From Candidatus Hermodarchaeota archaeon (lineage in GTDB: Archaea; Asgardarchaeota; Lokiarchaeia; Sigyniarchaeales; SOKP01): 64,000 bases of DNA. The notes beneath the pieces are model-generated. The model did no database searches, was not told the DNA's origin, and saw only the letters and a program-made list of their open reading frames with translations. The DNA is taken from NCBI GenBank assembly GCA_048885525.1, contig JBHLLP010000015.1, forward strand, positions 15,055 to 79,054. The letters run 5' to 3'. Each line of letters begins with the position of its first letter. Position 1 is the stretch's first letter. This document shows, one piece after another, positions 13,757 to 38,603 of this stretch. A program made the position numbers and the translations under genes.

Positions 13757-13868
13757 TATAACCACTTTTTTTATTAATAAAATCTAAAAAAAAATTAAGA
13801 TTTATCTATACATAGAAAATAATTTGAAGAAGATTTTTTATATATATCCTTCCCTATGGTGAATTTTA

Positions 13869-15065
13869 ATTCAAAGGAAATTTAGAAAATTAATTCCATT
13901 AATCATTATTTTAGTAGGAATAATTCTGTTTTTTATATTCTATTTTTTCCCTAACAATTTAAAAATTCAAAATCTTAATATTGAATTAAAGTTTAGTGGT
14001 GAAAATTCTTATTCTTTTATCGAAGATCAGTTAGACATTGGTTTTAGAATACCAGGAACTATTGAACGTATTAATTGTGCTAATTATTTTATATCCAAAT
14101 TTGAAGAAATTGACAGTAATTTCACTTATAATCTTCATAATTTTACGACTCATTTAACTGAATGTCAAAATATACTTTTTAAATTAAATGAAGCCAGAAC
14201 TAACATAATAATATTAGGAGCTCATTATGATTCTCGTGCTAAAGCAACAAAAGATCCTATAATTGCAAATAGAAGCAATCCGGTTCCAGGTGCAAATGAT
14301 GGAGCAAGTGGCTGCGCTGTTTTAATTGAGCTCGCAAATGTGCTTTATTCAGAGCGAGATAATTTATCTTGTCAAGTATGGTTTCTATTTTTTGATGCCG
14401 AAGATCAAGGATTGGATAATGCATATGGGATGGATGGATGGGATTGGTGTGAAGGATCCCAGAAATTTGTTTCAGATATTAATAATTTTTATAACTCTGA
14501 GATAGAGAATTTTGAATGTATGATTCTATTAGATATGGTGGGAGGGGAAAATCTAAAATTTATCAATGAACAGTACTCAACTTCTTCTTTATTAGATGAA
14601 TTATTTTCAATAGGTAGACATTTAGGTTATACTCATCAATTTCCTTCGAATCCTGAGAGTGCCTCAATAATAGATGATCATAGACCGTTCTTAAGCGCAG
14701 GCATCCCTTCAGCAGATTTAATAATAAATTTTTGGGATAATCCTGGGTGGCCTTATCATCACACTACACAAGATGATCTTTCTCATATTTCAAACTATAG
14801 CCTTGAAGCTACAGGAAAAACAGTTGAGCAATTTATTTACAATAATTATCTTGATGATCCATTTAATCTTTATCAAGGTAATTATCCATGGAGTCAAGAT
14901 ATAAATGTACCAAATATAGAAATAATTATAATAATTATCGTAGCTATTGTTGGAGTTTCTATTGTTATATTGATTTTTACTAGAAATACTTCAAATAATG
15001 AAGTTGAATCAGGAATACGCAAAAAATCCAATTCCTTCTATTTTATTATTGTTCCACACTGGTAG
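13869..15065 (+). CDS. M28-family peptidase / glutaminyl-cyclase-like, N-terminal signal-anchor and C-terminal TM; probable ATT start
   Basis: Frame is open from 13863 (after TGA at 13860-62) with no ATG/GTG/TTG until 14340. It already encodes GAHYDSR and PGANDGASG before the track start; later FDAED, LLDMVG, DDH, HHT. GGTGA RBS at 13858-62. Confidence 0.85.
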   Translation: MQRKFRKLIPLIIILVGIILFFIFYFFPNNLKIQNLNIELKFSGENSYSFIEDQLDIGFRIPGTIERINCANYFISKFEEIDSNFTYNLHNFTTHLTECQNILFKLNEARTNIIILGAHYDSRAKATKDPIIANRSNPVPGANDGASGCAVLIELANVLYSERDNLSCQVWFLFFDAEDQGLDNAYGMDGWDWCEGSQKFVSDINNFYNSEIENFECMILLDMVGGENLKFINEQYSTSSLLDELFSIGRHLGYTHQFPSNPESASIIDDHRPFLSAGIPSADLIINFWDNPGWPYHHTTQDDLSHISNYSLEATGKTVEQFIYNNYLDDPFNLYQGNYPWSQDINVPNIEIIIIIIVAIVGVSIVILIFTRNTSNNEVESGIRKKSNSFYFIIVPHW

Positions 15066-16012
15066 CAAAATTTTTCAGTCAGTTCTAATTTCATTCCACA
15101 AAATCTGCAAATAATATGAGTTTCTTTTAGTTTTTCTTCTTTTTTCTCTTGAATTGTAGGGATTGTTCTTATATCTTCAGTTTTCACTTGAGGAGCTTTA
15201 ATCACCGGTTCCTCATATGATTTTGGTTGTTCTATCTTTGAGCTTGGGGGAATTTCTTGTTCTTGTGGCATGATAACTATTTTTGGTTCTCTTTCTTTTT
15301 TGATTGTTATCACTGGCTTTACAATTTCCTCTTGTTCAATTTCTGGCAGAACTTTCTTAAGTTGAGCTCCACAATTAACACAAAATTGATTCTTCAAGTC
15401 TAAGATTTTATGACCACAGCTATGACAAAGGTTAATTATTTCACTAGACGGTCTACCTTTATAGGGATTGATTGTAGGGATCGATTTTAATTCTTCAGTT
15501 TTTAATTGAGAAGCTTTTAGTAAATGGTTTATTCGATCTTTTTTTGCTTTTAATCGTTCTTTAAAGAATTTCTCTTGCAAATTTGAGTATTCCTTATAAT
15601 TCTCTACTGTTGTTTTTCTTAAACTATTCTTAGTTCCACAAACTTCACAAACGTCCTTATTTATAATGGTAAATTCCCCACAATAAAGACAAAAAAAAGG
15701 ATGATCTTTTAAAAAAGACTCTATATCTCCTTCTTTTAAATCCAATATACTCGGATGAGATTCTTCCGGTCCTAGCTTTTGTTCTCTTATTTGAGCTTGG
15801 CTAGGTGATCGTTTTTCTATAATGTAATGCTGAAAATCCTTTTTTTTAGCTAATCTTAAACTATATCTATTTCCACAACCTTCACAATATTCTCTATGTG
15901 TATCTGTAAATTTCTTGCAGCTATCACAAATATAAGGTTGGGCCTTTAAGAATGCTTTCCTATCTTGTATTAAAGGTTTGTGATCTTCTGTTGACCATTT
16001 TTCTGAAAAAAT
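15038..16012 (-). CDS. Multi-zinc-ribbon protein (four CxxC..CxxC units); N-terminus extends beyond the track ORF, non-canonical start
   Basis: Frame is open 89 codons upstream of the TTG at 15745 and encodes an extra finger (FLKAQPYICDSC....EYCEGCGNRYSLR) that repeats FLKDHPFFCLYC....DVCEVCGTKNSLR. It is closed by TGA inside GGTGA at 16016-20. Confidence 0.75.
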   Translation of the reverse strand: MFSEKWSTEDHKPLIQDRKAFLKAQPYICDSCKKFTDTHREYCEGCGNRYSLRLAKKKDFQHYIIEKRSPSQAQIREQKLGPEESHPSILDLKEGDIESFLKDHPFFCLYCGEFTIINKDVCEVCGTKNSLRKTTVENYKEYSNLQEKFFKERLKAKKDRINHLLKASQLKTEELKSIPTINPYKGRPSSEIINLCHSCGHKILDLKNQFCVNCGAQLKKVLPEIEQEEIVKPVITIKKEREPKIVIMPQEQEIPPSSKIEQPKSYEEPVIKAPQVKTEDIRTIPTIQEKKEEKLKETHIICRFCGMKLELTEKFCYQCGTIIK

Positions 16013-16122
16013 ATTTCACCATAAAAACTATTATTTATGGAATAAAAATGGATTATTAGTTTTTTAAATAATTTAGAATTTAAATATTTCTGTAAACATT
16101 AAATAAGGAATTTTGAAATAAA

Positions 16123-16746
16123 TTATTTCTTAATCCCTAAAATTGCTCGATGTCTCTGTCTATCATTGTAAATTTCTAATATATTAAATGAACCAAAAAC
16201 CTCATGAATTTCCTCCATAGTAAAAAAATGGTGTGGAAGTCCTTTTTCTTGTCCTGCTTGAGGTATATAAGTATTTTTCTCAATTTCCTTTAGCTCCCAC
16301 TCTTCTAATCTAGATGTGCCTTCCAATCTAGGGAAAGTTATAAATATAATACCACCTTTTTTTAAAACCCTATCAATTTCGTTTACTGTGATTAATATAT
16401 CTTTCATTCTATTATGATGAATAACCTGAATTGATATAATGGCATCAAAAAAATTATCTTCATAGGGAAATTTTTCTTCCATTCTATGAAGGATTATTTC
16501 AGTCTTCAGACCTTCCTCTGAAAGCCACTTTTTAGCAATTGAAATTCCTTTAGGTGAAGAATCCATACCATAGATTTCAAATCCCTTTTTTGAAAAATAT
16601 AAAAGATGGCGACCCGTTCCAGACCCAATGTCTAATATTTTCTGTACTCCCCTCTCTTTAAAGAGTTTTGCAATTTTATCCATATCTTGATGAGGTTCAG
16701 TGAAAACTTTACCCTTTTCAGAGAAAATTTTATCCCAATCTGGCAT
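16123..16746 (-). CDS. Class I SAM-dependent methyltransferase
   Basis: ILDIGSGTGRH motif I; FDAIISIQVIHH; RVLKKGG. ATG (MPDWDK) preferred as start. Confidence 0.88.
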   Translation of the reverse strand: MPDWDKIFSEKGKVFTEPHQDMDKIAKLFKERGVQKILDIGSGTGRHLLYFSKKGFEIYGMDSSPKGISIAKKWLSEEGLKTEIILHRMEEKFPYEDNFFDAIISIQVIHHNRMKDILITVNEIDRVLKKGGIIFITFPRLEGTSRLEEWELKEIEKNTYIPQAGQEKGLPHHFFTMEEIHEVFGSFNILEIYNDRQRHRAILGIKK

Positions 16747-37321: not shown

Positions 37322-37405
37322 ATAATTTCGGTAATAACAGCAAATAGATAAAAATAAATTATTTTACCTATAGTCGATTATTTAGTATAATTTAAAATTT
37401 TAAAG

Positions 37406-38074
37406 TTGTATAATATTTTGGAAAATAGCATGATAATTATAATCATAACTTTATTCATTTTCTTTCTAATAAACATTATTGTTTATTGGCAAATCGTTTT
37501 GAAACAGAAAATTGGTTTCAATAAATTTAATAAATTATATAAGAAAGCTTTCCCCATTATATGGTTTATTTCTACAACCCTTATCCCAATCATAAATTCC
37601 AGTTTTTTCCAACCGTTTTTCGAAGAGAATATTAGTTATTTTCATCAATATTGGTTGTGGTTTATGTTAATAGGTATAATCATAATTATTTTTGGAATCA
37701 AAATCCTTTCATTAATTAAAAAATTATTAAAAGCCGCAAATATTGAGGAAACCGGTCATAATTTAATAAAGACTGGTGTTTATGAGATAGCAAGACATCC
37801 TCAATATTTTTCATGGATTTTAATCTATTTAGGTATCACATTTATCTTAGATTCTTTTATAGCTATAATAACAATACCAATCTTACTGATTTTAACAGAA
37901 CTTTTATGCTTTTTGGAAGAAAAATATTTACTCATTCCAAAATTTGGAGAAAATTATGATAGATACAAGAAAAAGACACCATATAAGTTGATTTCACCTC
38001 CTTATAATTATATATTTATAATTATGGGGCTTATAGTAGCTTATATAGGATTTTTAAATATTATTAATATTTAA
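37406..38074 (+). CDS. ICMT/PEMT-family membrane methyltransferase
   Basis: LIKTGVYEIARHPQY; EEKYLL.PKFGENYDRYKKKTP. Start may be the ATG at 37430. Confidence 0.83.
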   Translation: MYNILENSMIIIIITLFIFFLINIIVYWQIVLKQKIGFNKFNKLYKKAFPIIWFISTTLIPIINSSFFQPFFEENISYFHQYWLWFMLIGIIIIIFGIKILSLIKKLLKAANIEETGHNLIKTGVYEIARHPQYFSWILIYLGITFILDSFIAIITIPILLILTELLCFLEEKYLLIPKFGENYDRYKKKTPYKLISPPYNYIFIIMGLIVAYIGFLNIINI

Positions 38075-38096
38075 TCTATTAAAGAGGTGATGTTTA

Positions 38097-38603
38097 ATCA
38101 AAATAGCGATTTTGGCTACAGATGGATATGAAGATCTCGAGCTGCATTATCCACTCATTAGATTGATTGAAGCGGGGTATGAAACTGAAGTGTTAAGTTT
38201 ACAAAAAAGAGAAATTAAAGGAAAATACGGATATCCCATCAAACCTGATAAATTAGTAAGAGAAGCCAATCCTGATGATTATGATGGTGTGATAATACCT
38301 GGAGGCACAAAAAATCCTGATTATTTAAGGAGAGAGAAAGAAGTACTCGAATTCGTTTCCAAAATCAATGAAAAGGGAAAATTAATAGGTGCTATTTGTC
38401 ATGCTGGTTGGGTTTTAATTTCTGCAAAAATTATAAGAGGTCGTAAAGCAACTAGTTATTTTGCAATAAAGGATGATATGATAAATGCTGGTACTATATT
38501 TGAGGACTCTCCAGTTGTAATAGATAATAATTTGATTACTTCGCGTATGCCAAGTGACTTACCTGATTTCATGAGAGCAGTCTTGAATTTTCTAGAGCGT
38601 TAA
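38097..38603 (+). CDS. pfpI: PfpI/DJ-1 family (type 1 glutamine amidotransferase-like) deglycase/protease; probable ATC start
   Basis: DGYEDLELHYP; IIPGG; AICHAG; ITSRMPSDLPDF. The family beta-1 strand KIAIL lies upstream of the track's TTG. ATC at 38097 is 6 nt after GAGGTGA. Confidence 0.9.
   Translation: MKIAILATDGYEDLELHYPLIRLIEAGYETEVLSLQKREIKGKYGYPIKPDKLVREANPDDYDGVIIPGGTKNPDYLRREKEVLEFVSKINEKGKLIGAICHAGWVLISAKIIRGRKATSYFAIKDDMINAGTIFEDSPVVIDNNLITSRMPSDLPDFMRAVLNFLER

Follow-up and report, generated by a model that had tools for sequence, protein, structure and literature searches.

NCBI translation table 11 lists the codons ATT, ATC and ATA among its starts, and they are known from a small number of bacterial genes, for example infC (encoding IF3) and pcnB of Escherichia coli. 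Vertebrate and invertebrate mitochondria start at AUA, AUU and AUC (NCBI tables 2 and 5), and f5C34 in their tRNA-Met allows these codons to be read. Eukaryotic eIF1 autoregulates through the poor context of its start. The AUU-type start of infC has been reviewed (PMC4705826), a role in start fidelity has been described for eIF1 (PMC6237735), and a single ATT start, termed 'rare' by the authors, has been reported for an Asgard tubulin gene, AtubA of the Kariarchaeaceae (PMC13394414). Here we describe such starts in a 64,000-nucleotide (nt) stretch from a Candidatus Hermodarchaeota archaeon (positions 15055-79054 of contig JBHLLP010000015.1, assembly GCA_048885525.1; G000:C15:15055-79054), referred to below as the window. 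The assembly (G000) comprises 3.58 Mb on 87 contigs and has a GC content of 29.5%. Four genes of the window, encoding an M28 peptidase, a DJ-1/PfpI protein (pfpI), NurA (nurA) and a multi-zinc-ribbon protein, very probably initiate translation at AUU or AUC, guided by a Shine-Dalgarno (SD) sequence; in their orthologs the codon is AUU, AUA or AUC. As judged from sequence comparison, this is likely to be a habit of the whole family (f1) to which this Loki-type (Promethearchaeota) archaeon belongs. ATH is used below for ATT, ATA or ATC (AUH in the messenger), and canonical start for ATG, GTG or TTG.

Start sites of the four genes and their orthologs

The 3' end of the 16S rRNA reads GGATCACCTCC, and the complementary full SD is therefore GGAGGTGATCC. 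An earlier note on this DNA, made from its letters alone, had flagged the four genes as having an SD followed by ATT or ATC, and rereading the sequence bore out the SD, spacer and start codon of each. The ATG-started genes that it offered for comparison (at 11266, 19780 and 20188, and mre11) do carry GGTG(A/T) with a spacing of 4-7 nt. In all four flagged genes, an in-frame TGA or TAA lies directly 5' of the start region. SD complementarity is found at a working distance of 6 nt from ATH in the M28 and pfpI genes, 5 nt in nurA and only 3 nt in the Zn-ribbon gene. The first in-frame canonical codon comes 157 codons after ATH in the M28 gene, 89 in the Zn-ribbon gene, 5 in pfpI and 9 in nurA. 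Among the ~60 genes of the window, these four alone have a strong SD and ATH with no canonical codon there.

The SD of the M28 peptidase gene, GGTGA, is located at 13858-13862 on the plus strand. It can pair with the 3' end of the 16S rRNA and contains, as TGA, the in-frame stop of the upstream frame. After 6 nt follows ATT 13869 and then QRKFRKLIPLIIILVG, giving a coding sequence (13869-15065, plus strand) of 398 amino acids with an N-terminal signal anchor. The Pfam M28 domain begins at residue 101 of this model, and the first canonical codon lies past the motifs GAHYD and GANDGASG, as the note had stated. Orthologs were compared at 24 loci of other species, in two overlapping sets of 12. 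In the first set, from the same genus (65-74% identity), GGTG(A/G) followed by 5-6 nt and ATT or ATA is present at 12 of 12 loci, with a spacer sequence that differs in almost every species. The second set gave the same picture, with the SD kept at 11 loci. Across both sets, ATG occurs at the start site in two loci only, directly before ATA in L003 and as ATG ATG in L243. Orthologs in three other families of the same order (f2, f3 and f4) start at ATG, which is followed by a signal anchor of the same kind.

The nurA gene (25054-26259, minus strand; 401 amino acids) begins at ATT 26259-26257, which is directly preceded by TAA and lies 5 nt behind the SD GGGTGA (26265-26270, minus strand). Across 34 species, the codon before the conserved S-F-D/N-F-E-L-I is ATT in 25, ATA in 4, ATC in 3 and ATG in 2, and GGTG is kept 5-7 nt upstream of the start codon in nearly all of them. 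The earlier note had left it to ortholog alignment whether ATG can take the place of ATH; it does so here in two of the 34 species (L061 and L071).

In pfpI (38097-38603, plus strand; 168 amino acids), ATC 38097 stands 6 nt behind the SD GAGGTGA (38084-38090, plus strand) and is followed by KIAILATDG. The note had called this the typical N-terminus of the family. Position 2 of the Pfam DJ-1/PfpI profile aligns to residue 2, and the first strand, KIAIL, to positions 2-6. Most other Promethearchaeota have an ATG two codons upstream (M-x-K-K-I-A). In a clade of nine species that includes G000, the upstream region contains stops and has no canonical start, and ATT (seven species), ATA (one) or ATC (one) sits behind GAGGTGA or GAGTTGA with 6 nt between. 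Elsewhere in the family, the codon at position -2 is ATG in L184 and ATA in its close relatives L178 and L185, while L180, L186 and L189 have ATC or ATT in place of ATG. That ATH persists in nurA of 32 of the 34 species whereas pfpI mostly has ATG suggests gene-specific selection on start strength.

The Zn-ribbon gene (15038-16012, minus strand) encodes 324 amino acids from ATT 16012-16010, its first canonical codon being a TTG, and has its SD GGTGA at 16016-16020 (minus strand). A search among related loci returned no relatives of this protein. A search of the genus gave only four clear orthologs, otherwise diverged paralogs; the four are syntenic and have GGTGA, 6-7 nt and ATT-S-(Y)-D-D-E-K. 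ATG takes the ATH position in none of the orthologs found. TTT at +6, which the note had proposed as another possible start, finds no support. The probable start is ATT at +3. This is the least secure and weakest of the four cases, since no more than 3 nt separate GGTGA from ATT.

Genome-wide counts, lineage range and rival explanations

The genome-wide count started from 3048 open frames that do not overlap and span 100 codons or more; the ~3000 of them that do not run into a contig end were analysed. An SD site was defined as 5 nt or more matching GGAGGTGA at the head of a frame, upstream of its first canonical codon, and a start was assigned if it lay in frame 3-10 nt downstream. The 346 head SD sites of G000 lead to ATG, GTG or TTG in 220 cases, to ATH only in 73 and to neither in 53. 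ATH thus makes up 58% of non-canonical SD sites at heads vs 27% in gene interiors (odds ratio (OR) 3.7, p=1e-12). At 5-7 nt behind head SDs, we counted 88 ATG, 27 TTG, 7 GTG, 39 ATT, 25 ATA and 6 ATC. Control codons of the same composition are 5-10 times rarer there (4 TTA, 5 TAT and 3 AAT; p=1e-11 for ATT against TTA and TAT). ATH lies most often 6 nt (32 sites) or 7 nt (18 sites) behind the SD and shares its spacing peak with ATG, for which 4-7 nt is the commonest distance. From ATH to the first canonical codon the median is 21 codons, and the distance is at least 40 codons at 16 sites.

With ~20 of the 73 sites expected by chance, roughly 50 genuine ones remain under this strict SD rule. 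This figure is conservative, as any site at which the SD's own GTG is in frame (spacing 5 or 8) is left out by construction. About 70 genes of G000 (2-3%), or roughly a quarter of its strongly SD-led genes, probably use an AUH start. ATH-led and canonical-led genes differ in SD type. GGTG-type SDs account for 84% of the former and 46% of the latter (p=1e-8), and GGAGG-type SDs for 7% and 34% (p=2e-6). ATH starts thus prefer the GGTG(A) part of the SD, which would bring the SD duplex near the P site.

The same SD-centred test detected enrichment in two further genomes of the family, G006 (OR 5.9, p=6e-4) and G205 (OR 5.4, p=0.006). No significant enrichment was seen in samples of one genome each from three other families: G026 of f2 (an 800-kb sample; OR 1.45, p=0.37), G090 of f7 (30% GC; OR 2.0, p=0.4) and G102 of f21 (OR 1.5, p=0.5). 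As G090 is equally AT-rich, AT-richness alone is not the cause of the pattern. These data agree with the earlier note's proposal that SD-guided AUU and AUC starts are routine in the lineage, as do the conservation among orthologs and the interchange of ATG and ATH, and they add AUA to the set.

Several observations weigh against AUH initiation, or against its extent. In the Zn-ribbon gene, the SD-to-ATT spacing of 3 nt is rare for ATG genes (4 of 164). The TTG codons 5 codons past ATC in pfpI and 9 codons past ATT in nurA could each be a second start. Genome-wide, chance accounts for the ~20 sites noted above. The other families are represented by small samples (400-800 kb each), and G026 holds a few plausible ATH starts, among them those of RNA polymerase A' (ATC) and of a permease of the FtsX type (ATA). 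With such single cases in G026, the family limit is a matter of degree.

The earlier note had itself raised an assembly indel or a programmed +1 frameshift as an alternative. Translation would then begin at an ATG (or TTG) overlapping the SD and enter the gene frame one base later. The out-of-frame ATGs to which it pointed are present, at 13856-13858 (M28) and 38090-38092 (pfpI) on the plus strand and at 16023-16021 (Zn-ribbon) on the minus strand; the loss of a single base would bring each into frame, and runs of T lie nearby. However, the overlapping ATG is not conserved. It occurs, as ATGGTGA, at 2 of the 12 M28 loci of the first set, with TTGG, TAGG or CCGG elsewhere, and nurA and pfpI orthologs lack it. 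No SD precedes the overlapping ATGs. Upstream ATG and spacer vary freely among orthologs, and a conserved ORF0 or shift site of the prfB or antizyme type was not seen there. We considered and rejected a special role for the overlapping ATG, as ATGGTG is equally frequent at canonical (10 of 101) and ATH-led (7 of 61) GGTG sites; the ATG is therefore a product of base composition and not a hidden start, and we judge it incidental. More than 20 independent assemblies agree on the ATH sites, the base-level correctness of the four having been judged from 20-34 independent assemblies of other species. We consider an indel or shift extremely improbable. It is also very improbable that the true starts are the next downstream ATG, GTG or TTG and that the ATH triplets are ordinary codons of untranslated leaders. 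The nearby TTG codons of pfpI and nurA would suit such an arrangement, and public gene calls do take downstream or internal starts. Yet a downstream start would cost the M28 and Zn-ribbon proteins their conserved N-terminal codons, including the signal anchor and the beginning of the M28 domain, and would strip pfpI of its first strand. Moreover, protein conservation among orthologs begins exactly at ATH, and it is ATH, not TTG, that the SD precedes.

Chance placement of ATH behind SD-like words has to be considered in a genome of 29% GC, in which these codons are common. In gene interiors, ATH does fall within 3-10 nt of such words in the 27% of non-canonical cases given above, and chance holds for an estimated 20 of the 73 sites. 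As an account of the whole pattern, we give it next to no credence in view of the excess at frame heads, the rarity of same-composition codons, the lack of significant enrichment in G090 and the conservation of ATH sites across species. A further alternative accepts the AUH starts but has them read otherwise than by plain wobble of the initiator tRNA-Met, either by an initiator with a modified C34, for which mitochondrial f5C34 is a precedent, or by an initiator that accepts Ile, which would give the proteins an N-terminal Ile. The use of all three AUH codons roughly in line with Ile codon usage (25:4:3 in nurA) and the lineage-specific nature of the trait are consistent with this. However, the one initiator-type tRNA gene found (G000:C32:9579-9689) has a normal CAU anticodon, A1:U72, three G:C pairs in the anticodon stem (GGG/CCC), a 32-nt intron and an encoded CCA, although DNA hides modifications. 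No second initiator-type tRNA or paralog with another anticodon was found in G000 by ARAGORN, Rfam, or BLAST combined with a pattern search. The statement of a single initiator leans also on the last of these, because tRNA detection in this metagenome-assembled genome is incomplete (34 tRNAs by ARAGORN and 24 by Rfam). On balance, we regard a different mode of reading as unlikely.

Three further cases came to light in these surveys. A Zn-ribbon frame on the minus strand of contig C4 of G000 ('C4 - 93113') has GGTGA, 6 nt and CTG (TYCEFCGD...), and the next 80 codons include no canonical start; CTG may serve as the start here, and the relaxation may extend beyond ATH. Paralogous frames on contigs C59 and C82 both open with AAA ATT CCN AGN CGT TAY TAT GC behind GGTG, and the ATT start is common to the two. 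In G026, the RNA polymerase A' frame (G026:C1, 'b + 66345') apparently begins at ATC behind AAAGGTGT and 6 nt; its first canonical codon comes 26 codons later.

Proposed initiation mechanism, aIF1 and the nurA operon

Initiation at AUH may be envisaged as follows. The GGUGA-type SD would pair with the 16S 3' end and set AUH, 5-7 nt downstream, in the P site. The single initiator tRNA with its CAU anticodon would then accept AUH by a third-base mismatch, aided by the tight GGUGA duplex, and the proteins would most likely begin with Met. AUH starts would be weaker than canonical ones and could hence tune expression, amounting to a layer of translational control.

The fidelity factor aIF1 may be part of this scheme. 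Two aIF1/SUI1 paralogs are present in G000 (G000:C32:32281-32595, minus strand, and G000:C2:79571-79882, plus strand). Neither has a usable canonical start; both begin at ATH, with ATT or ATA-K-D-[DE] before the zinc knuckle. Among 30 aIF1 loci from across the phylum, the loci examined from the family have ATT or ATC at the start, except that two g11 loci may start at GTG, and nine loci of other families have ATG, GTG or TTG. Several other genomes of the family gave two aIF1 matches, and genomes of other families one. We tentatively propose, as a possibility that we hold to be less than even, that start-codon stringency has been reset in the family, with aIF1, itself started at AUU or AUA, keeping its own level at one that allows AUH starts behind a tight GGUGA. 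The ATH start of the aIF1 genes would then set stringency by feedback. If so, the output of the ~70 AUH-led genes, which include DNA-repair, peptidase and translation genes, would follow aIF1 activity. The co-occurrence of AUH starts with an ATH-started aIF1 provides a testable link between the dosage of a fidelity factor and the choice of start codon.

The nurA gene is an internal cistron of uvrD-herA-nurA-mre11-rad50, and its weak start might hold the amount of NurA below that of HerA within one operon. This DNA end-resection cluster (21633-30339, minus strand) consists of genes for a UvrD-type helicase (28195-30339), HerA (26287-28059), NurA, Mre11 (23734-25053) and Rad50 (21633-23756), all on the minus strand, and of the five only nurA has an ATH start. 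Elsewhere in the window, two small paralogs lie next to each other (19780-19998 and 20188-20418, plus strand) and encode proteins of ~72-76 amino acids with the N-termini MGWTPPSKF and MAWTPPSKF. Each has GGTGT followed by 6-7 nt and ATG, and neither has a match to a Pfam family. No RNA gene was detected in the window by Rfam or ARAGORN.

Comparison with known systems

No systematic account of ATH starts of this kind was found in the literature searched, in which the single gene AtubA (PMC13394414) was the one Asgard case. The consequences extend to annotation. Eukaryote-like proteins are widely sought in Asgard archaea, whose genes have mostly been called by programs that accept ATG, GTG and TTG only. 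Genes that start at ATH are hence cut short by gene finders, as the earlier note had foreseen. The public M28 call in the window (P0005) is a protein of 297 amino acids that starts at an internal ATA (14172-14174), where there is no SD, and loses 101 residues including the signal anchor. The called lengths of its orthologs range from 296 to 401 amino acids, with N-termini unrelated to one another. With 2-3% of genes starting at ATT, ATA or ATC in the family, proteins in databases would be systematically truncated or missed.

AtubA resembles the genes described here in being an Asgard gene whose deposited protein is too short and which has an ATT upstream, at a plausible distance from a ribosome-binding site. 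It differs in being one gene from another Asgard class, for which no genome-wide or lineage-wide claim was made. Mitochondria likewise use AUH codons routinely as starts. Unlike in the archaeon, there is no SD in mitochondria, and AUA means Met in elongation too, whereas ATH codons inside G000 genes fall, as usual, at Ile or hydrophobic positions of alignments.

Bacterial infC and pcnB share with the AUH-led genes a weak near-cognate start, differing at the third position, that is placed by an SD, read by the initiator tRNA and disfavoured by a fidelity factor. As with infC, the fidelity factor's own gene has such a codon, in this case that of aIF1, and AUH is kept across relatives within the family. 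The apparatus of the archaeon is instead eukaryote-like (aIF1, aIF1A and aIF2), and the number of genes concerned is ~70 per genome vs one or two, with all three AUH codons in use and the habit spread through the family. Archaeal initiation with eukaryote-like factors may thus be able to tolerate looser discrimination at the third base, given a tight SD. The parallel with eIF1 lies in a homologous factor (eIF1/aIF1/SUI1) with a weak start site. In eIF1 the weakness is that of the Kozak context of an AUG and involves no non-AUG codon, unlike in the feedback that we suggest by analogy for aIF1. If the tentative role of aIF1 is correct, the family, whose members are close relatives of eukaryotes, would possess an archaeal equivalent of the feedback loops of IF3/infC and eIF1.

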